Assembly (NCBI GenBank): GCA_964498785.1
Contig: CAZCJL010000021.1
Span: 2,818 to 66,817, forward strand
Origin: an uncultured Cytophagia bacterium
GTDB lineage: Bacteria > Zhuqueibacterota > Zhuqueibacteria > Thermofontimicrobiales > Thiofontviventaceae
Length of the DNA: 64,000 nucleotides
Direction: 5' to 3'
Numbering within the stretch: position 1 is the stretch's first letter; every line of letters starts with the position of its first letter. Below the pieces are notes generated by a model. The model was not told where the DNA came from. It saw only the letters and a list, made by a program, of their open reading frames with translations, and did no database searches. Both the position numbers and the translations under genes were made by a program. Positions 2,963 through 22,639 of the stretch are shown in pieces.

Positions 2963-5281
2963 TTAATTGTCCTTTTGTTTCGTTTTTAATTTCAGGATTG
3001 CAAATACACCGATTGCCGCAATTGAAAGCACAGTAATTTCGCCCATTGTATCAAATCCCCGGAAGTCCACTAAAATTACGTTCACAATGTTTCTACCATG
3101 TGCTATTTTCAGGCAATTATCATTAAAATATTGTGAAACGCTTTCAGCGATCTGTAGATAATGTGTGGATAGTACCAGTATTGTCATAACAATTCCAATT
3201 GAGGCCGAGACAATGAAATCACGAATTCTTGACTTCCATGCTGATATTCTTGCAAACGAAGGTAAATGATACACTACCAAAAGAAGAAGGATAACCGTCA
3301 ATGTCTCAATCAGGAATTGTGTGATTGCAAGGTCGGGTGCACCGAAAAGGATGAAGATAGTTGCCAGTCCATAACCGACTACCCCCAATGAAATGACAGC
3401 CGTAATTCGGGAACGGGTTAGTATGGATAAGAAGGTGGCGCCAATCATGATGAGGACGAGTATAAACTCGTAGAAATTGACCTCAAATTTTATGTGTGCA
3501 AAAGTTAATCCGCATAGCCTGGAAATTTGTACAGACAACAGAATCGCTGTGCTTAGAAGAATTGTCATTAAATAGTAGCGCAAGTAACCATTTTGTAGAA
3601 TTCGTGTTTGCAAACTGGCAAATGCTAATAGACCATTCAGGCCTTTTTTAAACAGAACTGTCGGGGTAAACGGCTCTGCAAAAGAGAATCTTTTCCGGTT
3701 TTGACGTAAAAAGTTTCGTGCAAAATAAAGCGCTATGCCTAGAATTAACGTAATAACGCTTAATAAAAACACCACATTGATACCGTGCCATAATTTTAAA
3801 TGGACAATGTGTTCTTCCGCGCGAATTGCTGTGACAGAAGATGATATTAACGGAAAAGCGATAAAATGAGGAAATAATCCCAGAATAAGACCAATAAATG
3901 CCAACACCAGTGGACCAAACCATAGTGTGATGGGAGTTTTCTTTGATGTTGCAGGTGTTTGATCATTTTTACAAATAAACGGGCAGATCCCCACACTCGC
4001 AGCAACTGTCACGTTGGCCACATTTGCAATGATACCCGCAATCGTGATAAGGATGGGCGCTGTTTCGATGTAAAGATTAGCCTCATAAAGTAATTCTTTA
4101 GAAATAAATCCCAAAAGCGGGGGAAATCCTGACATGGATAATGCAGCCAATCCTGCGGCGATTGCTGTCATTGGCATGGATTTTACCAATCCCCCCAGAA
4201 CCTGAACATCCCGCGTGCCGGTTTCATGGTCGATAGCGCCGGCAACCATAAATAATGCGCCTTTGTAAAGTGAATGCACAATTAAATAAACCATAGCTGC
4301 TTTTATTGCCATGGTAGTGCCAATTCCCAATAGCATTGTAAGCGCTCCCAGCGCGCTGATTGTCGTGTATGCAAGCAGCTTTTTTAAGTCAACTTGCGGT
4401 AACGCCTGTAACGCGCCGATGAGCATAGTCATTACGCCAATAAAAGTGACTATGTAATGCCACTCCCCCGTGCTTCCTAAAACAGGATGTAATCTGGCTA
4501 ACAGATAAATCCCGGCTTTAACCATTGTTGCTGAGTGCAGGTATGCACTCACCGGCGTTGGCGCTTGCATTGCACCGACCAGCCAAAAATGAAAGGGAAG
4601 CTGAGCCGATTTGGTGAATGCTCCAATCAGAACTAGTAATAAAACAGGCAAATATAATCCGGACGAGCGAAGCACTTCCGGATTTTTCAAAAGTTCAGTA
4701 AATTCATAGGTTCCGGAAACAGTGCCAATTAAAACAAAACCAGCCAGCAGAGCAAGTCCGCCCAATCCGGTCACTAAAAGCGCCTGCAGGGCAGCATATC
4801 GGGATTTCTCACTTTCGTTATTAAATCCAATCAGTAAGTAGGATGTGAAACTGGTCAATTCCCAAAAGATGAAAATGGTGATCAAATTTCCCGCTAAAAC
4901 AACTCCCAACATCGATCCCATAAATAGAAGCAGGTAGATATAAAAACGATTCAAATAGTGATGACCGTGCAAATATCCGCTACCGTAAATAACGATCAAG
5001 GTTCCGATTCCACTGATGAGTAGTCCAAATATCAGGCTTAATCCATCCAAATATAGGGAAAAATAGATCCCCAGGGCGGGAAACCACGATTTTAAAATGT
5101 AGTAAGTTTGAATTTCGGATGAAATACACACTTTTGGGATATAGCTGGTCAAGTAAAGAAAAATGCTCAATGGAAGAATTGCTAAAAGTTTACCGGTTTT
5201 ATCTCTTAACACCCGGTTGATAACCGGGATAAATATGGTGACTATGAATAGAGCGAGAATGGCGCCTATCAGTATACTCAA
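2963..5281 (-). CDS. mrpA: Na+/H+ antiporter subunit A (MrpA, NuoL-like with C-terminal MnhB-like domain)
   Basis: A 772-aa polytopic protein carrying NuoL/ND5-type antiporter motifs. It is the first gene of the operon, sitting downstream of the 880-bp promoter region. Confidence 0.85.
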
Positions 5282-5696
5282 CTTTAGAAACCTCGTATTT
5301 TTTTGAATGATATTTCAATTAATAATTGTTTAAAGGATCATTATTTATTCCATAAGGCTTTTTCATTATCGCATAACCCATTCCTGGCGGATTTATTTTA
5401 TCACAGAGCTGTCGAAAATATAATACTATAATATTGCAAATTTTCGACCTGGAAGCAACTATTTTTGTCAATTGAGATTAATTAATTAATTTTGAATGAA
5501 TCGAAATCTCATTTAATTGGAGCATTTTGATTTTTAATATCACGACCAGGAATTATTAAAAGGTAAATCTACAAAACAAATTTAATAATGTCAATAAAAA
5601 TGTTAGCCTCAATAATTCATACGCCACAAAAACGCAGCGACGCAACGCATTTTTCTTAACACAAGCTCACTACAAATTTTAAAATCTTCTTTGTAT

Positions 5697-5760
5697 TTGA
5701 TAATGATAGCAGATGTTCGCTTTTGTTTTGAATTTATATTTTGATAATTGGAATTTATCA
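5697..5760. promoter_or_regulatory. Two Fur-box-like AT-rich palindromes in the mrpA / giant-surface-protein divergent promoter region
   Basis: The sequence tTGATAATGATAGCagatg at about 5697-5716 matches the first 10-11 nt of the Fur consensus GATAATGATAATCATTATC. A perfect 6-7-6 palindrome TGATAATTGGAATTTATCA lies at about 5742-5760. Both sit in the 880-bp non-coding gap between divergent genes. Confidence 0.3.
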
Positions 5761-6164
5761 CGCCAAAGATGGATGCGTCCTCCGGCGCTTATGTGCTTTG
5801 TTACTTGAAAATTGTAGTATATAAAATTCATTTTAGAATTTTAGGTATTATCAAAATTTTGCAAGGGTTTTTCAACGATTCTTGAGTTTCAGGAAAGCCT
5901 GTAAAGGTTTTGCATTTCAACTGTTGATAAAATAGTACGTTATAATTAGATTGAATATTTCGTTTCGAATTTCAGGTATTAAATGGCGCAAATCAATTTT
6001 CGACTTATATGTTTGATTTTGTTAACTAATATCCGCATTTTACTGATATTGGATGTATTTAACTCTTACCTGTTTGCGAATAACTATTTGCTTGTCAGTG
6101 AAATATAAATTAGCAATCTATTCCGAGAGCCTCGAATCAAGAATGAACTATTTGTGTCTTAGCC

Positions 6165-12197: not shown

Positions 12198-12413
12198 ATG
12201 GCAGTAGAAAAAACCATCGCTTCTTCAAGCCTGGTAGAAGTTATCGACAGAGTGCTGGATAAGGGTATTGTAATCGACGCCTGGGCTCGTGTATCTTTAG
12301 TAGGTATTGAATTATTGGCTGTAGAAGCCCGCGTTGTTTTAGCTTCTGTAGAAACATATCTAAAATATGCTGAAGCAATCGGCTTAACAGCTACAGCGGC
12401 ACAACCCGCATAA
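12198..12413 (+). CDS. gvpA: Gas vesicle structural protein GvpA
   Basis: 71 aa: [64 protein letters not shown]. This is near-identical to the canonical cyanobacterial GvpA core. A strong SD (AAAGGAGGTG) lies 7 nt upstream. Confidence 0.97.
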
Positions 12414-12594
12414 GTTCATTCATTTTGTGAATCGGGAATTTTTTGTCGAAGCACCCTGAAAATGTGATTCCCTCCGATTAAAAGGGCTTTTATTAAAGCG
12501 TGTTTCGCCATAGATTTCCTGATTTTTTTTGAATTGATTTTCGGAAAACACAATTTCACTGTCGTTCTTCGAATGCGAAAGGGAAATAAGGTTT

Positions 12595-13230
12595 ATGGAT
12601 TTGATTTACAACGTGCAGAAGCTCACAAAGGAAATGATTACAGGTTATGATTTGCGGGTGGCAAAAATTGAAGAAGTATTAACTTCAGCTTATGATGTAT
12701 TAGAAGATTGTCGGGAAAGTAGAAAGAACGTTCGCGAACAGCTCAAACACAGTCTTGCCAATAAAAACTCGTTGCGCCGAAAAGATTTTGATATGATCGT
12801 ACAAGATTTACATCAATCGCAAGTTGAATGTGAAGCTCGAATCAAAGAAACGGTGCACATATTTACCAGGGAAAATAAATATCTTGCTGGGCAATTTTTC
12901 GAATCATTAATAACCGGCAAAATTGAACAGTCTAAAAAGGCTGTTAACAAAATTGAAAAAAACGGGAAAGAGATTCAGCACACAATTAAAACGTTTCAAC
13001 AAGAACAAAAACAAATTGCAACGGATTTGCATTCGTTTCTGGAAAAATGTGAATCGATCCGTATTAAAGATTTTAAAAAAATGATTGAAAAAATTCGTAT
13101 CCGTCAATGTGAACGCAGTGAAAAGATTAAACAGTTCTTAAAAAAAATATCTGAAGAACATAAGCAAATGCGTGCTGTTTGGCAAAATATATCGACTGAT
13201 AAAGCAAAATCACGTAACACGGATGCGTGA
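12595..13230 (+). CDS. Coiled-coil repeat protein in the gvpC position (candidate GvpC-like gas-vesicle shell or scaffold protein)
   Basis: 211 aa, Lys/Glu/Gln-rich with predicted coiled coil. It has an internal repeat about 95 aa apart (SLRRKDFDMIVQDLHQSQVECEARIKE vs SIRIKDFKKMIEKIRIRQCERSEKIKQ). It lies immediately downstream of gvpA, where gvpC sits in cyanobacterial and Serratia clusters. Confidence 0.45.
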   Translation: MDLIYNVQKLTKEMITGYDLRVAKIEEVLTSAYDVLEDCRESRKNVREQLKHSLANKNSLRRKDFDMIVQDLHQSQVECEARIKETVHIFTRENKYLAGQFFESLITGKIEQSKKAVNKIEKNGKEIQHTIKTFQQEQKQIATDLHSFLEKCESIRIKDFKKMIEKIRIRQCERSEKIKQFLKKISEEHKQMRAVWQNISTDKAKSRNTDA

Positions 13231-13262
13231 TTTTCACAAAATGAAGTTAACGGAGGTACATA

Positions 13263-14618
13263 ATGTCAAATTTAGATGATATGATGCGACTGAAAGAGGA
13301 GATCATCGCTTCGTTTGACGAGCGAATGAATACTCTTGCAAATATAGTTGAATCAACAACTGATCTCGCACAGTCAACACGAGAAATGACTGAACGACAT
13401 CGAAATGATCATCTTCTTATGAAAAATAATTTACAGTCACAATTAAGTGAATTTAGAACAAAATTGAGCGACGATAATTTAAAGCGCCTTGTTGCGACAA
13501 AGCATGAATTTAATGAAAGAATGAGTCAATTAACTGACTTGCTTGCTGCGTTTAAACCGGACGGAAAGTCGGAGTTGACACATTCAGTCAGAGAAACATT
13601 AGAAAAATTTCGTTCGGTGCGACTCGATGAATTCAATGTATTTTTGGAAAAATTACAGCAGCGTATTTATGAAATTAAAGACGAAGTTCATTCGACGATA
13701 GATGGGTTTAAGGAATCTCGGCATGAAATATCTGCCGCATTAGAGCGAAATTTGTCTGAATTTAATAAACAGCTTAAAAATTATCGGTCAACGCTTTCGA
13801 ACAACGAAAATAACAGATATAAGCAGGCGCAGGCAGAAATTCAAGAACGTACCATTTATCTGAATACTCTTTTTGGCGACGTCTCACGTTTGTTAAGCGA
13901 TTTTCGCACGGATCACCAGAAAATGTCGTCGATGTTAAAGGAGATGTTAACATTTAAGGGTTTCAATAACCAGCGGTTGAGCAATTTTCAAAATATGATG
14001 GATAATATTCTGGATCATCAGAAAAAGCGTGTTCACGATACAACCCAAATGATCTCAGGTTTTAATGAGTGGCATGATGATATAAAAAATGAATTGCATG
14101 ATCTGCTTTCTACTGTAAAATTGAATTTAGCGCAATTTAACGATGAACGCGTCAATTTAGCTCATGAAGAAATGAGTGAGCGCGTGGAATATATTTATCA
14201 AATGAAAAAAGACATCTCCACCATGCTGGGAAATTTGCGTAGTGAAAGCCAAAAAGTAGCGGACGAATGGAAGAATATCGCCAGAATAATAGACCAAAAA
14301 AGAAAAAAATCAGAAAAGGAACACATAAAGATTATTTCAGAAGAAGAACCTGAAATAAAAGCGCCAAAACCAGCGCCAGAAATGGAGAAGCAGGAAATTG
14401 TATCGAAAATGTATGCTTCGAAAACAGCGTCTGAAAATGATAACGACCCGAGTGACAAAATACTGGCTATTATCGCGCAACATGCTGATGAGGGAATTAA
14501 ATTGGCTGAAATTGGCAAGATTGTGAATAAAAAATGGCAGTCACTAATTCCTTTTACAAAAACACTTATGGAGCAGGGAAAGATAAAAAAAGAGGATACT
14601 GTGTATTTCCCGAATTAA
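13263..14618 (+). CDS. Large coiled-coil repeat protein (second GvpC-like candidate) with a C-terminal winged-helix-like segment
   Basis: 451 aa. A recurrent x[DEGN]F[RNKQ] motif appears at residues 64, 83, 116, 124, 149, 167, 213, 234, 242, 267 and 292. There is a clear internal duplication of about 118 aa (residues ~116-167 vs ~234-292). A Pro/Lys/Glu linker (EEEPEIKAPKPAPEMEKQE) precedes a C-terminal globular segment (ILAIIAQHADEGIKLAEIGKIVNKKW…). Confidence 0.45.
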   Translation: MSNLDDMMRLKEEIIASFDERMNTLANIVESTTDLAQSTREMTERHRNDHLLMKNNLQSQLSEFRTKLSDDNLKRLVATKHEFNERMSQLTDLLAAFKPDGKSELTHSVRETLEKFRSVRLDEFNVFLEKLQQRIYEIKDEVHSTIDGFKESRHEISAALERNLSEFNKQLKNYRSTLSNNENNRYKQAQAEIQERTIYLNTLFGDVSRLLSDFRTDHQKMSSMLKEMLTFKGFNNQRLSNFQNMMDNILDHQKKRVHDTTQMISGFNEWHDDIKNELHDLLSTVKLNLAQFNDERVNLAHEEMSERVEYIYQMKKDISTMLGNLRSESQKVADEWKNIARIIDQKRKKSEKEHIKIISEEEPEIKAPKPAPEMEKQEIVSKMYASKTASENDNDPSDKILAIIAQHADEGIKLAEIGKIVNKKWQSLIPFTKTLMEQGKIKKEDTVYFPN

Positions 14619-14665
14619 ACTGAGCTGAACCTGAAACCTAATATTACGCCTGGGAGAAATAGTCT

Positions 14666-15580
14666 ATGAACAATAATTCCACCGTCGTTCTTGAGCCGCT
14701 ATTAGATGATGAATATGTAATTACTCCGTATTTGAAAGATATCCTCGAATCAGCAAGCAATTACATGGATGCTGGTTATCCGATTCATTTCTGTGGACCG
14801 GCAGGAACTGGCAAAACATCTCTTGCTATGTATCTGGCAGCAAAATATAACCGACCGATCGTAATGATGCACGGGGATAATGAATTTGTTACCTCAGATT
14901 TAATTGGCGCTGAGCACGGAATTCGATCTCGAAAAGTGGTGGACAATTTTATTCATCATGTTTATAAAACCGAGGAACGCATCGACCGACAGTGGATGGA
15001 TAAACGACTTTCTCTGGCATGTAAAAAAGGTTTCACGTTAATTTATGATGAGTTTACCCGGTCAAAACCAGAGGCCAATAATGTATTGCTTTCAATCCTG
15101 GAAGAAAGAATGCTTGACCTTCCCGCACAAGTGAAGGGGGATGTTTATATAAAAGTACATCCTGAATTCAGGGCAATTTTCACAAGCAATCCGCAGGAAT
15201 ATGTTGGCATACATCGGGCGCAAGATGCATTGTTAGATCGGATGATTACAATTGATTTACAGCATCTTGATTTGGATACGGAAATTCGGATTACACAAAA
15301 AAGAGCTGACCTCACTTATAAGCACGCCAAAAAAATAGTGAATATTGTCCGCAATTTTCATATAAAAAATGGTAATGAAAAAATTTCCACATTGAGAGAT
15401 GCCATAAAAATCGGTAAAATTTCCAAATTGATGAATATCACACCATCTAAATCACAAAATAGATTTCGGAAAATATGTGTTGATATTTTAACATCAGATC
15501 CTCACATTCACAAATTTAATGGCGCTCCAAAATCTCAGTCCTTGAAATTTCTGGATGAACTTATCGAAGTATATTGTTAA
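14666..15580 (+). CDS. gvpN: Gas vesicle protein GvpN (MoxR/CbbQ-type AAA+ ATPase)
   Basis: 304 aa with Walker A (HFCGPAGTGKTSLA), Walker B (LIYDEF) and CbbQ/NirQ/GvpN-type architecture, lying between the gvpA and gvpO/F genes. Confidence 0.9.
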   Translation: MNNNSTVVLEPLLDDEYVITPYLKDILESASNYMDAGYPIHFCGPAGTGKTSLAMYLAAKYNRPIVMMHGDNEFVTSDLIGAEHGIRSRKVVDNFIHHVYKTEERIDRQWMDKRLSLACKKGFTLIYDEFTRSKPEANNVLLSILEERMLDLPAQVKGDVYIKVHPEFRAIFTSNPQEYVGIHRAQDALLDRMITIDLQHLDLDTEIRITQKRADLTYKHAKKIVNIVRNFHIKNGNEKISTLRDAIKIGKISKLMNITPSKSQNRFRKICVDILTSDPHIHKFNGAPKSQSLKFLDELIEVYC

Positions 15581-15601
15581 TATAACAGAAAGGGGTGAAT
15601 T

Positions 15602-15856
15602 ATGGCGCTTCAAAAGGTTATCGCTGCAATTAGCAACTTTTTTGAATCTGTATTAAATAAAAAGGGTCGGGTGATTGAGGTGAAAACTCAGGAGCGCGGC
15701 TGGTCTGCCTTGGTGGAAACAGTGGAAGAAGCCGAGTACATGCGCAAAATTGCCCAGGATGATCTGCTTGCTGTATATGAGGTTCACGTTGATCAAAATT
15801 ATGAAGTGGTTGACTACAGTCGAAAAAGTTTGCGTTCGAGAAAAGAAGCTGCATAA
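15602..15856 (+). CDS. gvpO: Gas vesicle protein GvpO
   Basis: 84 aa. The motif …GRVIEVKTQERGWSALVETVEEAEYMRKIAQDDLLAVYEVHVDQNYEVVDYSRK… matches the GvpO pattern (GW-V-VE-VE…LLA-YEV…G-VV-Y-R). An SD (AAAGGGGTGA) is present. Confidence 0.8.
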   Translation: MALQKVIAAISNFFESVLNKKGRVIEVKTQERGWSALVETVEEAEYMRKIAQDDLLAVYEVHVDQNYEVVDYSRKSLRSRKEAA

Positions 15857-15865
15857 GGTTTAAAA

Positions 15866-16192
15866 TTGAAAGGCGGTATTGGTATGTCACAAATTAAAGG
15901 ATTAAGTAATATTCGCTCCAGCCAGAGAATCCATCTAAGTTCTATTTCTAAAAAAGGACGTTCGAAATTCTTGACGCTGTTTATGTTGGATAATGAACGG
16001 CAATTATTGCAGAAAGATAGTGATATTTTGAAACAACGGCAATCAAGAAATCAGGAGCGGATTAAAGCAATTAACGCTGAGATTAATGAAAAACTGCAGC
16101 ACGATAGTGCAATGATTAATAAAAATGAAAAGGGACATTCTTTGATAAGAAAAATTCCGGAAAAGTGGAAGACTGCAAAAATCGATGTTTAA
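15866..16192 (+). CDS. Small basic coiled-coil protein of unknown function inside the gvp cluster
   Basis: 108 aa (or 102 aa from the second Met, MSQIKGL, at about 15884). It is rich in K/R/Q and sits between gvpO and the first gvpF/L. I recognised no known family. Confidence 0.4.
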   Translation: MKGGIGMSQIKGLSNIRSSQRIHLSSISKKGRSKFLTLFMLDNERQLLQKDSDILKQRQSRNQERIKAINAEINEKLQHDSAMINKNEKGHSLIRKIPEKWKTAKIDV

Positions 16193-16224
16193 AAATAGTG
16201 AAAGCGAAAAGTAATGGTGGAAAA

Positions 16225-17238
16225 ATGGCGGCAAAATATTTATACGGATTTATTGAGACTGATCGTGAGGAGAATTTCGGGAATATAGGCGTCGGTAATC
16301 AGAACAGGGTAACGACAATTCGTTATCGTGATGTTGCAGCAGTTGTTAGTGATCATCCTGTGATACAGTTTGATCAATTAGATGAAAGTCAGTTAACGAA
16401 CTATATTCAAAAACATCAGGTGGTTAATGAAAAGGTGCTGGAAAAACATACCATCATTCCGTTGAGGTTCGGAAACATTGCCCAAAATGCAGCAGATGTT
16501 CTGAAAATATTAAAACATGCTTATATTCAATTTAAAACACAACTGGATCAGTTGCAGGGAAAAATCGAACTTGTCATTCAGGCTACCGCGAACAAACAGG
16601 TCTGGTTGAAGGAGATCGTCGAGACAAATACGACGATAAAAGATTTGACAAAGAAATTGGATAAATCCGATGCGCAGGAGAAAATTCCCATCCAGGTCGA
16701 AATCGGAAAAATAATTCACAATACAATCGTACATAAAGAAAAAGAGATAGTCGTTGATATATTGGCAACACTTCGAAATGGCGGAAGTCCATATAGATCG
16801 GATAAATTACTGACCCAGGATATGATAATGAATATGTCCTTTTTAATTGATAGAACTGCTGAGTCTGCGTTTGATCAAAAATTAAATGAATTAGGGCAAC
16901 GATATGCAAATGATCTCACTTTCAAGTATATTGGCCCGCTACCGCCGTACAGTTTTACACAATTGAATTTAAAAACCACTGATTTGAATTTCATTAATAA
17001 TGCGCGAAAAATGCTGAATTTGCCAGGGAAAGCCTCAAAAAAGGAGATCAAAAAAGCGTATCGAACAATGGCGTCAAAATATCATCCGGATAGGACTGGA
17101 AATGATTCTCAAAAATTTAATGAAATTCACAACGCGTATCGCACTCTGGAAGTGTTTTGCAATAATTACCGCTATTCATTTGATGAAAAAACAATAAGTG
17201 AAACAGTGCTTATTGATGAACATTATAAAGAAGAATAG
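16225..17238 (+). CDS. GvpF/GvpL-family gas vesicle protein fused to a C-terminal DnaJ J-domain
   Basis: The real start is MAAKYLYGFIE at 16225, with a GGTGGA SD 5 nt upstream; the 16165 ORF start is an upstream extension. GvpF/L hallmarks are present: YLYGFI…VTTIRYRDVAAVVS…IPLRFG…KYIGPLPPYSF. The last ~70 aa (LPGKASKKEIKKAYRTMASKYHPDRTGNDSQKFNEIHNAYRTLEVF) form a J-domain with an intact HPD motif. Confidence 0.8.
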   Translation: MAAKYLYGFIETDREENFGNIGVGNQNRVTTIRYRDVAAVVSDHPVIQFDQLDESQLTNYIQKHQVVNEKVLEKHTIIPLRFGNIAQNAADVLKILKHAYIQFKTQLDQLQGKIELVIQATANKQVWLKEIVETNTTIKDLTKKLDKSDAQEKIPIQVEIGKIIHNTIVHKEKEIVVDILATLRNGGSPYRSDKLLTQDMIMNMSFLIDRTAESAFDQKLNELGQRYANDLTFKYIGPLPPYSFTQLNLKTTDLNFINNARKMLNLPGKASKKEIKKAYRTMASKYHPDRTGNDSQKFNEIHNAYRTLEVFCNNYRYSFDEKTISETVLIDEHYKEE

Positions 17239-17242
17239 TAAT

Positions 17243-18004
17243 ATGGGAAAATATATTTACTGCATTGTCGAAAACAGAGACCATCCGCAATTTACATCGA
17301 AAAATATTGGCAAAGAGTATTCTCCTGTTTATACCCTTAAATATAAAGATATTGGGGCAGTTATTAGTGAATCTCCGATTACAAAATATTCGTTTATTAG
17401 TGATAATTATATTGCACATCAAAAAGTAATTGAAGAATCTCAATCATACAATTTAAATCCATTACCAGTTCGGTTTTGCACAATTGCAAATAATGAGGAG
17501 AGCATTTGTGCAATATTAGATAAACGATATGAAGATTTTCAAGCGAATTTAAAACAGATGCAGGGAAAATACGAACTTGGTTTGAAAGTATTTTGGAAAG
17601 ATAATATTGCCTATGATGAAATTTTGCTGAACAATCCATCTATTCAAGCAGAGCGAGATCGATTGAAATCAATGGATCCTGAAAAAACCTATTTTCTACG
17701 TATCCGCGTTGGAGAGCTGGTTGAAAAAGCGATTACTGAAAAACGCGAACGTGAAATGCAAGAATTCATCAATCGTTTTCAGAATATTTGTTATGATTTA
17801 TCCATGGGACGTATCATTGGCGATAAGATGATATTTAACGCAGCATTTTTAGTCGATCGTGGCCAGGAAAAATTATTGGACGAAGAAGTGAATCGAATTG
17901 CTTTTGATAATGAATCTCGTTTGAAAATTAAATATGTTGGACCGGTTCCTCCATATAATTTTGTAGAAATTACGATAAATACGAATGAACTCGGTTTAAA
18001 TTAG
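17243..18004 (+). CDS. gvpF: GvpF/GvpL-family gas vesicle protein (paralog 2)
   Basis: Starts MGKYIYCIVE at 17243, after the upstream stop at 17236-17238. Motifs YIYCIV…YKDIGAVISE…PVRFCT…KYVGPVPPYNF are present. Confidence 0.8.
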   Translation: MGKYIYCIVENRDHPQFTSKNIGKEYSPVYTLKYKDIGAVISESPITKYSFISDNYIAHQKVIEESQSYNLNPLPVRFCTIANNEESICAILDKRYEDFQANLKQMQGKYELGLKVFWKDNIAYDEILLNNPSIQAERDRLKSMDPEKTYFLRIRVGELVEKAITEKREREMQEFINRFQNICYDLSMGRIIGDKMIFNAAFLVDRGQEKLLDEEVNRIAFDNESRLKIKYVGPVPPYNFVEITINTNELGLN

Positions 18005-18018
18005 GGATAAAATAAATA

Positions 18019-18249
18019 ATGGCGTTCATCATCGATGACATTTTATCACTGCCGGTTAAAGGAATCATCGGAATTTTCAAAGAAATTCATAACTACGCAG
18101 ATAAAGAGTTAAACGATATAGATTTCTGGCAACAAAAATTGCTCGAATTACAACTTCGTTATGAAATGGGGGAAATAGAGGAGCTGGAATTTAAACAACA
18201 GGAGAAAGATATTGTACAACGAATTTCCGAAATTCAAGAACGAGGATAA
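18019..18249 (+). CDS. gvpG: Gas vesicle protein GvpG
   Basis: 76 aa. MAFIIDDILSLPVKGIIGIFKEIHNYADKEL… matches the GvpG N-terminal MFLIDDLL…P pattern, and its position after gvpF is canonical. Confidence 0.8.
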   Translation: MAFIIDDILSLPVKGIIGIFKEIHNYADKELNDIDFWQQKLLELQLRYEMGEIEELEFKQQEKDIVQRISEIQERG

Positions 18250-19048
18250 TTTATATCTTTACTGTGTGCGGGAGAGGCGTGCCAATGAATTAAACGTGAC
18301 CGGTATATTTAATCAGGAAAAGGTTTTTTCGATCGTTTGTAAAAATTTAGAAGCAATTGTCAGTATTGTCCCGCAAAATCAATTTGATGATACTGATATA
18401 AAGAAGAAGGCACGGGAAGATATCAACTGGATAAAGGAAAAGGCGCAACTCCACGAGGCAATTGTGGAAAAAGCGATGTATCATTCATCAGAAATATATC
18501 CGGTTATTCCCATGCGGTTTGGAACGATTTTCAAATCAAAAGAAAAAATTAATCACCTGCTAACAAAGCACTACCATCAGTACAGCAATACAATTGCCCG
18601 TCTGACAAAAAAACAGGAATGGAGTGTAAAAGTATATCTGACGCATCAGGATCGGATCACCGATCATGTTGTTAGCACCAACGAATTTATCAAAAAAGAA
18701 CAAGCAGATGTCGCGGTTTTACCAAAAGGAATGGCCTATTTCATGCAAAAAAAACTTAACGAAATGGTAAAAAACGCTGTTGACGACAAAATGAATCAAT
18801 ATGTTCACGATATCATTGAGAGATTGGAAAAACATTCAACAGGACGTCACGAAGGAAAATTACTGGGACCGGAATTTACCGGGAAGAAAGCAACAATGGT
18901 TCTGAATGCAATTCTCCTGATTCATGAGGAAAGTGTTTTGGATTTAATTGAGGCAATACAGAAACTTCAGGATGAAATGAATGTTTTCGGGTTCCGGTTT
19001 GAATATAGCGGTCCGTGGCCTCCGTATCATTTTGTGGAGTCGCAGTAA
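18212..19048 (+). CDS. gvpL: GvpF/GvpL-family gas vesicle protein (paralog 3, GvpL-like)
   Basis: 278 aa with motifs LYLYCV…PMRFGTIF…FEYSGPWPPYHF. Its annotated start overlaps gvpG by 38 nt, so the start is uncertain. Confidence 0.7.
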   Translation: MYNEFPKFKNEDNLYLYCVRERRANELNVTGIFNQEKVFSIVCKNLEAIVSIVPQNQFDDTDIKKKAREDINWIKEKAQLHEAIVEKAMYHSSEIYPVIPMRFGTIFKSKEKINHLLTKHYHQYSNTIARLTKKQEWSVKVYLTHQDRITDHVVSTNEFIKKEQADVAVLPKGMAYFMQKKLNEMVKNAVDDKMNQYVHDIIERLEKHSTGRHEGKLLGPEFTGKKATMVLNAILLIHEESVLDLIEAIQKLQDEMNVFGFRFEYSGPWPPYHFVESQ

Positions 19049-19049
19049 A

Positions 19050-19589
19050 ATGAATAATACTTTTGCAGAAAAAGAGGTGACGCTGCTGGATGCGCTGGAC
19101 AGGGTTATCGAAAATGGTGCGGTCATAAGTGGTGATCTTACATTAAAAATGGCTGATATTGATTTGATCTATATTGGATTGCGGCTTATTGCAACATCCG
19201 TCTCAAAAGTTGAAAGCATGAATGGTTCGTCCCATCAATGCCCGGATCGGGAACCCACGGAACATGAATCAAATTACATACAAAAACTTGACTCTGAAAT
19301 TATAAAAGCAGAGCAGAATATTTCACAGTTGATTGAATTGCAAAATCCTGAAAAAACAGAGCAGGGACTGGCGCAAATAGTTTTGACTCTTGTGGTTTTA
19401 TTAAAAAGACTTATGGAACGGGAAGCCATGCGCAGAATTCAGCGCGGAGCATTATCCAATGTTGCAATTCAGAAACTGGGGTTGACGTTTATGGCGCTTG
19501 ATAAAAAGGTGGACGAACTCAAGTGTGTTTTTGGTCTCAAAGATGATGATTTAAATATTGATTTAGGCCCTTTGGGAAATTTGATGTAG
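19050..19589 (+). CDS. Fusion of a GvpJ/GvpM-like (GvpA-fold) domain and a GvpK domain
   Basis: The real start is probably MNNTFAEKEVTLLDALDRV at 19050, just after the gvpL stop. The N-domain LLDALDRVIENGAVISGDLTLKMADIDLIYIGLRLIATSV is GvpA/J/M-like. The C-domain GLAQIVLTLVVLLKRLMEREAMRRIQRGALSNVAIQKLG…DELKCVFGLKDDD matches the GvpK consensus (LVQLVLTVVELL…LEREAVRR…G.L…E.LG). Confidence 0.7.
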   Translation: MNNTFAEKEVTLLDALDRVIENGAVISGDLTLKMADIDLIYIGLRLIATSVSKVESMNGSSHQCPDREPTEHESNYIQKLDSEIIKAEQNISQLIELQNPEKTEQGLAQIVLTLVVLLKRLMEREAMRRIQRGALSNVAIQKLGLTFMALDKKVDELKCVFGLKDDDLNIDLGPLGNLM

Positions 19590-19629
19590 CAATTATTACT
19601 GCAATTTTGCAGTAAGTCAGGAGATAAAT

Positions 19630-19950
19630 ATGTCGGAACAGATAACCCACGGACTTCATTCCACAAATCTCGCGGATATTTTAGAGAGAGTATTGGATAA
19701 GGGGATTGTAATTGCCGGAGATATCCAAATTAAGCTTGCGGATATTGAGTTGCTAACGATAAAAATACGACTTATGGTGGCGTCTGTAGATAAAGCCGTT
19801 GAAATGGGAATTAATTGGTGGGAAAGTGATCCTTATTTAAATAATAATTCCAACGAATTAATCGAAGAAAATAATCAATTAAAAGAAAAATTAAATAAAA
19901 TTGAACGACAACAACAGCAGCGTAAACGAGGGTTAAAAGATGGAGAATAA
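19630..19950 (+). CDS. gvpJ: Gas vesicle protein GvpJ
   Basis: 106 aa. [57 protein letters not shown] shows a GvpA-fold plus the GvpJ-typical 'WW…DP.L' region and a basic C-tail. Confidence 0.85.
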   Translation: MSEQITHGLHSTNLADILERVLDKGIVIAGDIQIKLADIELLTIKIRLMVASVDKAVEMGINWWESDPYLNNNSNELIEENNQLKEKLNKIERQQQQRKRGLKDGE

Positions 19951-20470
19951 TAAAAAGAAAAAAGAGAAAGAACATGAGGTTAAAATAGATTTTGGGTTAG
20001 GAGGTTTGTTTAAAGGGCTCGGCAATCTGGTTGACCTTGTGTCTGAAATGTCTGAAAAAGGGGAGCAGATCAAGGAAAGAACGCAGGAATTTTCTGGTAA
20101 AGGTCCGTTCAAGGATGTGAACGGAGTTTATGGATTTTCAATTAAAATGGGCGCGAGTGGAAAACCTGAAGTAAATTCTTTTGGAAATGTAAAGAAAAGT
20201 CAAAACGGGCCTGTGGTTGATGAGGTGAGAGAACCGATGGTCGATATTTTTGAGGAAGATGATGAAATTCAGATCATCGCGGAAATGCCAGGTGTGGCTA
20301 AAAATCAAATCAAATTAGAATTGAATGGTGATGTGATGATGATTAGCGCGCAAAATAACAAACGAAAGTACCAGAAAGAGCTATTGTTACCAACACCAGT
20401 GAAAGAGCAGACAGTGGTCTATTCTTATAAAAATGGTATTCTTGAAGTTAAATTGGCGAAAAATTCATAG
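19940..20470 (+). CDS. Hsp20/alpha-crystallin small heat-shock protein (GvpH-like)
   Basis: 176 aa. The alpha-crystallin domain REPMVDIFEEDDEIQIIAEMPGVAKNQIKLELNGDVMMISA…VVYSYKNGILEVKLAK follows a Lys-rich N-terminus. Confidence 0.8.
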   Translation: MENNKKKKEKEHEVKIDFGLGGLFKGLGNLVDLVSEMSEKGEQIKERTQEFSGKGPFKDVNGVYGFSIKMGASGKPEVNSFGNVKKSQNGPVVDEVREPMVDIFEEDDEIQIIAEMPGVAKNQIKLELNGDVMMISAQNNKRKYQKELLLPTPVKEQTVVYSYKNGILEVKLAKNS

Positions 20471-20500
20471 CACTATTGAAAAAAGGATCCGGAGAGTCGA

Positions 20501-22639
20501 ATGGCGGAATCTACTGACAAAACGATTATACGATTGAGGGTAGCCGAATCGATGGCAAAAGATGTTGGCCGCGGGATTGCGCGCATCGACCCTGTTGATA
20601 TGAAGGCAATAAATGCCAGCGTTGGTGATATTGTTGAGATTGCCGGAAAAAGAAAAACAGTTGCCAAACTGATGCCCACGTATTCTGAATATCGGGAAAA
20701 AGGTTTAATCCAAATCGACGGCCTGATTCGAGAAAATGCCAAAGTGGGGCTGGATGAGCGCGTCGGAATCAAAAAAATCGAATCCCAACCGGCGACTAAA
20801 ATAATACTGGATCCGCTGTCCATTATTTCCGGTAGTTTACGAGAAAGCCGTTATATTGGTCGATTAATTGAGGGATTACCATTACAAAAGGGCGACCGCA
20901 TCCGGGCGAATTTAATCGGTTCCCGGTCCCAGGATTTTACTGTCATTGATACGAATCCGGGAGGAGTGGTGATGGTTCAGCCGTCCTCTCTTATTCAGAT
21001 TAAATCCAGAGATGAACAGAAGAAAGCTGGTCAAAAGATATCTTATGAAGATATTGGCGGTCTTCACAAAGAGATTCAACGAATCCGCGAAATGATTGAG
21101 CTTCCGCTAAAATATCCTCAAATTTTCCAACGGCTGGGAATTGACCCGCCAAAAGGAGTGCTGTTACTGGGGCCACCGGGAACCGGAAAAACGCTAATTG
21201 CCAGGGCGGTTGCAAACGAAACAGAAGCCTCATTTTTTGCGATCAATGGTCCGGAAGTGATTCATAAGTTTTACGGTGAAAGTGAAGCAAAACTACGCAG
21301 CATTTTTGAACAGGCAAATAAACAAGCGCCGAGCATCATTTTTCTCGACGAAATTGATGCGATATCACCAAAACGTGAATCTGTGGTTGGTGATGTTGAA
21401 AAAAGAGTTGTGGCTCAATTATTAGCTCTTATGGATGGACTTGCCAGCCGGGGACAGATTATCGTAATTGGCGCGACAAATATTCCCAATGCAATAGACC
21501 CGGCACTGCGCCGCCCCGGACGGTTTGATAGGGAAATCACCATTGGTGTTCCCGATAAAAAGGGGAGAGAACAGGTTCTGGAAATTCATACTCGTGGTAT
21601 GCCTCTGGCGGCAGATATTGATTTAAAAAGACTTGCCGAAATGACCCATGGCTTTGTCGGTGCAGATTTAGCAGCGCTATGCCGCGAATCGGCAATGAGC
21701 GCTTTGCGTACTATTTTCCCTAAAATCGATTTTGGTATGGATTCCATTCCCTATGAGACTATCCTGGAACTGGAAATAAACATGGACCACTTTTATGAGG
21801 CAATGAAAGAGGTAGAACCCTCTGCCACCCGTGAGGTATCTGTAGAAGTACCGAATGTCCGTTGGGATCAGGTTGGAGGATTGCAGGACGTAAAACAAAA
21901 ATTAATTGAAGCAATTGAGTGGCCGTTAAAATATGCGGAATTATTCGAAATTGCCAAAACGACTCCGCCGAAAGGAATTGTTTTACACGGACAACCGGGG
22001 ACCGGGAAAACATTATTGGCTAAAGCAGTGGCCACAGAAAGCGAGGTGAATTTTATTTCCATCAAAGGGCCGGAATTATTATCGAAATGGGTTGGTGAAA
22101 GCGAAAAGGGCGTTCGGGAGCTTTTTAAAAAAGCACGCCAGGCGGCTCCGTGCATACTCTTTTTTGACGAAATTGACGCCATTGCACCGGTTCGAGGCAG
22201 TGGCGGCTCAGATTCGCATGTTACAGAAAGAGTTATTAGTCAATTGCTCACTGAATTGGACGGTATCGAGGGCTTAAAAAACGTTGTCGTGATTGCGGCA
22301 ACAAACAGAATCGATATTATTGATGCGGCAGTATTACGACCGGGTCGATTTGATTTTTTGATCGAGCTTCCGGTGCCGGATCCTGAATCCAGAACAAAAA
22401 TATTCAATGTTCATTTGCATGATAAACCATTAGATAAAGATGTGAAGATTTCGAATTTGGTCAATGATACAGAAGGATTTGTAGGAGCAGACATCGAATC
22501 AATTTGTCGATATGCTTCCATGCTGGCAATTCGTGATGTAGTGGAGTCGCAAAAAGGGGATCAATTTGATTTAGAAAAGCTTCGATTAACTATGAAACAT
22601 TTTAAAATAGCGATTAACGATGCCGGTCAAAGGACTTAA
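20501..22639 (+). CDS. CDC48/VCP/VAT-type AAA+ ATPase (N-domain plus tandem D1 and D2 rings)
   Basis: 712 aa with an N-terminal double-psi-barrel-like segment. There are two Walker A sites ([22 protein letters not shown]), two Walker B sites ([18 protein letters not shown]) and second-region-of-homology motifs. Confidence 0.85.

Follow-up and report, generated by a model that had tools for sequence, protein, structure and literature searches.

The open reading frame at positions 19050-19589 of the window (the whole stretch of DNA analysed here, 64,000 nucleotides in length) very probably encodes one polypeptide, a GvpS(GvpM)-GvpK accessory protein that belongs to a complete gas-vesicle cluster, derives from a merged gvpS and gvpK and does the jobs of both. 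A Pfam scan of the two halves of the protein, as the first-pass annotation had proposed, identifies both domains. The Gas_vesicle family (PF00741) matches residues 11-48 with 48.9 bits (E 7e-13), and the GvpK family (PF05121) matches residues 99-179 (positions 5-85 of the 85 in the profile) with 93.3 bits (E 1e-26). Both scores pass the gathering cutoff of 25 bits, and both matches are far above chance.

The fused gene and the cluster around it

The features of the fused gene and of its cluster are the following.

19050-19589, + strand: gvpS-gvpK fusion ORF, 179 aa and a TAG stop (ORF, sequence, both Pfam domains, identical database protein)
19080-19193, + strand: Gas_vesicle (GvpA-fold) domain of GvpS/GvpM type, residues 11-48 (PF00741, S versus J profiles)
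19218-19343, + strand: connector, conserved, residues 57-98; helix predicted at 71-94 (connector HMM, alignments, AlphaFold2)
19344-19586, + strand: GvpK domain, residues 99-179 (PF05121)
12198-22639, + strand: whole gas-vesicle cluster (Pfam scans, called genes on the source contig)
12198-12413, + strand: gvpA
12595-13230, + strand: probable coiled-coil ORF, 211 aa, charged (no significant Pfam match)
13263-14618, + strand: probable coiled-coil ORF, 451 aa, charged (no significant Pfam match)
14666-15580, + strand: gvpN
15602-15856, + strand: gvpO
16225-17238, + strand: gvpF-DnaJ fusion (Pfam GvpL/GvpF domain, 184 bits; C-terminal DnaJ J-domain, 51 bits)
17243-18004, + strand: gvpF
18019-18249, + strand: gvpG
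18212-19048, + strand: gvpL, of the GvpL/GvpF family (PF06386, 188 bits)
19630-19950, + strand: stand-alone gvpJ (PF00741, 65.6 bits; J profile 122.5 versus S profile 56.2 bits)
19940-20470, + strand: Hsp20/α-crystallin (Pfam)
20501-22639, + strand: CDC48-type double-AAA ATPase (Pfam)

The fused gene starts with the ATG at 19050 and runs for 179 codons without interruption to the TAG at 19587-19589. Its ATG lies 2 nt past the TAA of the upstream GvpL/F-family gene, and a GGAG is found about 10 nt 5' of it, a layout typical of translationally coupled operon genes. A longer mechanical ORF of 202 aa is available from an ATG at 18981. The residue ranges initially assigned to the two domains (about 30-80 and about 120-200) fit this longer ORF and not the 179-aa protein, and both gene callers and homologues start at 19050. 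Searching the 64-kb window with tblastn, we find no further GvpK-like sequence and no second gvpS elsewhere.

The junction between the two domains had been singled out as a place where a frameshift might have created the ORF, and we see no sign of one there. The idea that two genes were joined into one ORF by an error of sequencing or assembly draws on the short A-runs present in the connector DNA and on the existence of one family member that is split by a frameshift, and we consider it extremely improbable. A scan of the window for + strand ORFs of at least 40 aa in another frame spanning the junction returns none. The identical 179-aa protein is present in NCBI and Logan, on three contigs. 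In a database of 5.8 billion proteins, all of the 120 best homologues (177-222 aa, 55-100% identity, several phyla) are two-domain single chains, and the same single ORF appears in well over 100 homologues of independent assemblies as well as in a finished plasmid of the cultured Methylosinus sp. C49. Amino-acid conservation, moreover, runs through the junction and the connector. On these grounds the frameshift reading was rejected. The split member comes from a Bacteroidetes MAG and belongs to the connector-bearing subfamily (L017, 728-1269); its frameshift separates an N-domain ORF from a connector-plus-K ORF, and may reflect an error of assembly, a recent fission or a pseudogene.

The order L-[S-K]-J of the window recurs in a Patescibacteria locus (L085) and in a metagenome locus (L086), and GvpN, GvpO, GvpF-DnaJ, GvpF, GvpG, GvpL, Hsp20 and the CDC48-type AAA ATPase are common to all three. 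In the Patescibacteria locus the accessory genes from GvpN to GvpJ are nearly all present, and the metagenome cluster also has an ArsA ATPase.

Several other aspects of the cluster deserve mention. The two probable coiled-coil ORFs lie between gvpA and gvpN, the place of gvpC-like outer-surface proteins in other clusters. The cluster includes a second fusion, GvpF-DnaJ, for which the mechanical ORF begins at 16165 and which is conserved in the Patescibacteria locus (5026-6093) and in the metagenome locus (5072-6112); this fusion suggests the recruitment of Hsp70 to a GvpF-type GvpA chaperone. The Hsp20 and CDC48-type AAA pair right after gvpJ is also found downstream of the fusion on the Methylosinus plasmid pMSC49b, where the Hsp20 is annotated GvpH. 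Clusters with this pair represent a chaperone-rich cluster type.

The two domains and the connector

Since PF00741 is common to GvpJ, S, M and A, we asked which GvpA paralogue is fused by means of profiles built from position-defined genes. The S and J profiles were made from the S and J genes of unfused loci, S being the gene directly upstream of gvpK. We used 80 loci from a scan of GTDB species genomes, with all ORFs classified by three HMMs, one each for N-terminal domain, connector and K domain. The N-terminal domain of the window protein scores 74.5 bits on the S profile versus 44.5 bits on the J profile, 30 bits apart, while the GvpA of the window scores 36.8 bits on S and 48.8 on J. The gene downstream, which had been annotated as a stand-alone gvpJ, is confirmed as J-type by the scores listed above. 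The same polarity, a fused domain of S type followed by a J-type gene, is present in 21/21 fused loci. Amongst the NCBIfam models, the best for the N-terminal domain is haloarchaeal GvpM (NF046091, E 1e-4), ahead of GvpA and GvpJ; with 21.9 bits versus a cutoff of 109, the protein falls outside that narrow family. The domain also occupies the position of GvpS/GvpM, downstream of gvpL and upstream of a K module that is followed by gvpJ. The family profile aligns to the GvpA structures 8gbs and 7r1c over residues 4-52.

Judged by profile scores and position, the N-terminal domain is a GvpS/GvpM orthologue and not a GvpJ. The original description of the ORF as a GvpJ/M-type domain fused to GvpK was right in that one polypeptide joins a GvpA fold to GvpK, and the GvpJ part of the label has to be dropped. 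One may still want to read the protein as a GvpJ-GvpK fusion, or plainly as GvpJ, following the NCBI pipeline, which names several homologues "gas vesicle protein GvpJ" and could rely on the shared Pfam domain. This reading is very unlikely given the deficit of the J profile and the true J-type gene that comes immediately after the fusion. In addition, the domain sits between L and K, the place of gvpS in unfused clusters, and the NCBIfam model for haloarchaeal GvpJ scores 12.1 bits versus a cutoff of 125. The names of homologues in public databases are inconsistent, either GvpJ or GvpK, and each of these two NCBI names covers half the protein at best; the JGI annotation of one family member already names both domains. 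With an N-terminal domain of S type placed next to K, the event is a fusion of adjacent gvpS and gvpK genes.

The two domains are joined by a connector of 42 residues. In and next to it, the alignments identify as invariant or near-invariant E55, G59, T70, Y76, L80, E83, I84, A87, E88, N90, I91 and I95, and the sole connector indel in a 20-sequence alignment is in frame and six residues long. A connector HMM matches only the subfamily of the window protein (L001-L015, L017 and L019), with 44-85 bits, and detects no counterpart in the tails of stand-alone S proteins or the heads of stand-alone K proteins. The idea that the connector stems recognisably from the tail of an S protein or the head of a K protein was rejected, as no similarity was found.

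A first AlphaFold2 run on 120 close homologues was poor (pLDDT 53.7). With a more diverse alignment, the model reaches a mean pLDDT of 73.1 and a pTM of 0.66. It predicts helix α1 of the S domain at residues 12-21 (pLDDT about 80), a connector helix at residues 71-94 (pLDDT about 84), and a K domain of two long helices at 102-131 and 137-161 (pLDDT 78-91). The S region that corresponds to the β-hairpin of assembled GvpA, at residues 22-50 or so, is modelled as a low-confidence coil (pLDDT 52-63), which would be unsurprising if the S β-hairpin formed only in the shell lattice. Foldseek finds no solved structural relative of the model, and by sequence there is no GvpK homologue in the PDB.

The two halves could end up as separate proteins, by internal initiation or by proteolysis of the connector, and the gene would then amount to an ordinary S and K pair. 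An internal start is available in Met57 (ATG at 19218), which falls within the connector, and residues 59-62 have low confidence in the model and are probably flexible. We regard such a separation as improbable. Of the 20 aligned sequences, just the window protein and the relative nearest to it have Met57, the family consensus connector has no methionine, and no Shine-Dalgarno-like motif precedes the Met57 codon. A connector that is conserved and predicted to be helical is also unlike a disposable spacer.

Distribution and origin

Similar fusions, for which a database search had been recommended, are abundant. An exhaustive phmmer search against 1.84 billion cluster representatives results in 3018 matches at E <= 1e-3, of which 687 are at E <= 1e-10. 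Newly listed cluster representatives at 50% identity number 148; of these, 141 have the S domain first and the K domain second (S→K), and four have the reverse order (K→S). The connectors of the 141 S→K representatives range from 29 to 159 residues, with a median of 77. The Gas_vesicle domains of the four K→S proteins (P0170, P0196, P0221 and P0258) are S-like rather than J-like. Another search, word-based and started from one K→S protein, adds 33 K→S and 70 S→K proteins. The reverse-order family, with GvpK first and Gas_vesicle second, includes the GvpK of Nostoc sphaeroides plasmid p4 (L082, 6031-6504).

The S→K genes occur in genomes labelled Patescibacteria/CPR (Doudnabacteria, Saccharibacteria, Peribacteria), and also in genomes labelled Omnitrophota, Elusimicrobiota, Cloacimonetes, Bacteroidetes, Melioribacteraceae, Pirellulales, Verrucomicrobiota, Syntrophorhabdales, Terriglobia and Chloroflexi. 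A cultured carrier is Methylosinus sp. C49, whose plasmid pMSC49b encodes an S→K protein of 219 aa annotated gvpJ. Members of the fused subfamily have 55-70% identity across phyla, which fits a horizontal spread of the whole cluster as judged from sequence identity. As for the loci we collected, gas-vesicle loci L001, L003, L011, L016, L018, L078 and L085 are in genomes labelled Patescibacteria/CPR, and among the papers searched a single one brings up gas vesicles, gvp and Patescibacteria together. S-K-J gene sets are present in the non-aureus staphylococci Staphylococcus agnetis and S. simulans (L063, L077); a bovine Staphylococcus genome paper also mentions them.

Unfused clusters, as in Bacillaceae, Staphylococcus, Streptomyces, Rhodococcus, Mycobacterium and others, always have gvpK flanked by two Gas_vesicle genes, a small one before it and another after it, which is the S-K-J order of Bacillus megaterium. 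In the 38 unfused loci that we scored, the S-type gene lies directly upstream of K, and overlap is usual. The two genes are in different frames in 30/38 pairs, most of them overlapping, and in the same frame in 8/38; a single stop codon is the divider between S and K in seven of these eight same-frame pairs. In the finished plasmid pA of Spartinivicinus ruber (L084, 3968-4504), gvpS ends in TAA and gvpK follows two codons on in the same frame, such that S and K read through make a stretch of 178 codons that aligns collinearly with the window protein (179 aa). Besides Spartinivicinus, the seven loci with S, stop and K in frame are from Streptomyces, Pseudonocardia, Gemmataceae and Gemmatimonas. 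Programmed stop-codon read-through in the unfused lineages was considered and finds no support, as a same-frame count of 8/38 is not above the one-third expected by chance.

Where S and K overlap or are divided by one in-frame stop, one substitution or small indel suffices to fuse or split the pair. Neighbouring gvpS and gvpK genes would thus have merged into a chain with an S domain, a partly helical connector of about 42 residues, and a two-helix GvpK domain. In a neighbour-joining tree of the 81-aa K domain, built with no bootstraps, the connector-bearing subfamily forms one clade and four other fused proteins fall among the unfused ones. The tree is only suggestive, and the S-K fusion probably arose more than once.

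Function, significance and known systems

Nucleation is the least understood step of gas-vesicle assembly. GvpK is essential, yet we know of no mechanism or solved structure for it. In Bacillus megaterium, GvpS, GvpK and GvpJ are each required for the interaction of GvpA2 with GvpL, all three bind GvpL strongly early on, and the trio has been proposed to seed vesicle formation; GvpJ and GvpS are present in urea-washed bicones, and GvpK is undetected in purified gas vesicles (PMC11445434). In Haloferax, a CBD-GvpK fusion pulled down GvpM, and in a split-GFP assay GvpL was the only partner of GvpK and of GvpM, with no contact between M and K (PMC7688916).

At the very start of assembly, the S-K chain may supply both the GvpS and the GvpK activities. 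Its S domain, which resembles GvpA, would enter the nascent cone tip or nucleus as a minor part of the shell, and the helical K domain would act as a soluble partner of the S domain, or as its organiser or chaperone, together with GvpL and GvpJ. The fusion would fix a 1:1 stoichiometry and the proximity of two proteins already acting together. As GvpK is undetected in vesicles and GvpS is found in bicones, a linked S-K protein must differ in behaviour from at least one of its parts. By analogy with the separate proteins, direct physical contact between S and K is plausible, consistent with the pull-down of GvpM and with the fact that GvpS, K and J are required jointly. The fusion alone is weak proof of such contact because adjacent overlapping genes fuse easily.

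That ease also bears on whether the fusion has any function of its own. It may be neutral, the result of coupled gvpS and gvpK genes merging by stop loss or frameshift and persisting only because both products are needed at similar levels, in which case it would have nothing to say about an S-K interface. We consider this rather unlikely. In its favour, S and K touch or overlap in almost every unfused locus, a single mutation is enough to fuse them in seven of the 38 scored and in Spartinivicinus, and the connector varies widely in length across fused representatives. The split-GFP result without M-K contact goes in the same direction, as does the tolerance of GvpS to bulky fusions at either end, shared by most GvpK constructs (PMC11445434). 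Against neutrality, fusions exist in both orders and apparently stem from several independent events, the fused state has been kept over many phyla with its conserved connector at the identities given above, and GvpM is pulled down by CBD-GvpK. The repeated fusions in both orders may go further and indicate that the nucleus of the gas vesicle has at its core an obligate heterodimer of GvpS and GvpK, a proposal we make only tentatively. If it is true, the seed complex would bring the termini of GvpS and GvpK near one another, the helical connector conserved in this subfamily would be a functional part of the seed, and the 179-aa chain would be a minimal single-chain nucleator suited to structural work.

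Returning to the single-chain GvpS(GvpM)-GvpK protein that we favour, the occurrence of natural S-K chains in both orders speaks for GvpS/M and GvpK working as one unit. Such chains, with their defined stoichiometry, are a target for structural work on the nucleus and offer a way to have fewer genes in engineered acoustic-reporter clusters. On the practical side, GvpJ/GvpK naming is misleading, and the N-terminal domain is better called GvpS/M-type. The advance is incremental, as the idea is in a 2024 review for a cyanobacterial protein and the S→K form was already in public databases; what we add is the S/M assignment, the existence and recurrence of both orders, and the conserved connector helix. 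The fusion is of modest specialist interest and leaves the current picture of gas vesicles unchanged. As a clue to the onset of gas-vesicle formation it is useful, though no surprise.

The first-pass annotation had also stated that J/M and K are separate genes in described clusters. This is true of Halobacterium, B. megaterium and Serratia. Cyanobacteria are an exception, in that their GvpK carries a C-terminal Gas_vesicle domain. The 2024 review describes the GvpK of Anabaena flos-aquae as a probable GvpJ/M/S-GvpK fusion, recommends it for nucleation studies, and reports GvpJ as the only stand-alone GvpA homologue in that type of cluster (PMC10903477). The cyanobacterial and the window proteins are alike in having GvpK and Gas_vesicle domains in one chain, and no separate S/M gene is reported in the cyanobacterial cluster type. 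They differ in order. The GvpK of Nostoc sphaeroides plasmid p4 (WP_118171797.1, 157 aa) has GvpK at 18-99 and then Gas_vesicle at 115-153, whereas the window protein has Gas_vesicle at 11-48 and then GvpK at 99-179. Their connectors are unrelated, and the clusters are arranged differently, A-C-N-J-K-F-G-V-W in cyanobacteria versus A-N-O-F-G-L-SK-J-Hsp20-CDC48 in the window.

The pNL29 cluster of B. megaterium has the same local order as the window, L-S-K-J, and there the S domain is a GvpM homologue. Its gvpS and gvpK overlap by 47 bp (PMC11223475; PMC11445434), and such overlaps are also found in related Bacillaceae loci. B. megaterium makes two polypeptides, whereas in the window the two are covalently joined by the conserved connector. 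In Halobacterium salinarum, GvpM, the source of the best (though sub-cutoff) NCBIfam match to the N-terminal domain, and GvpK are both essential accessory factors and both bind GvpL (PMC7688916). In its gvpFGHIJKLM set, K and M are separate and non-adjacent, with L between them.

The fusion on Methylosinus sp. C49 plasmid pMSC49b, annotated gvpJ (WP_142864684.1), has the domain order of the window protein, with Gas_vesicle at 34-72 and GvpK at 129-204. It is followed, as in the window, by J, GvpH/Hsp20 and a CDC48-type AAA ATPase, and the two clusters have GvpA, GvpN, GvpF and GvpG in common as well. The Methylosinus connector is longer, rich in proline and arginine, and cannot be aligned to that of the window protein; the gene directly upstream of the fusion is GvpG instead of GvpL, and the overall tblastn identity between the two fusions is only 30%. 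In the literature we found no described S→K fusion, only the remark on the reverse-order cyanobacterial protein. Compared at the sequence level with these systems, the window protein is a real, reversed-order form of an already known kind of fusion.
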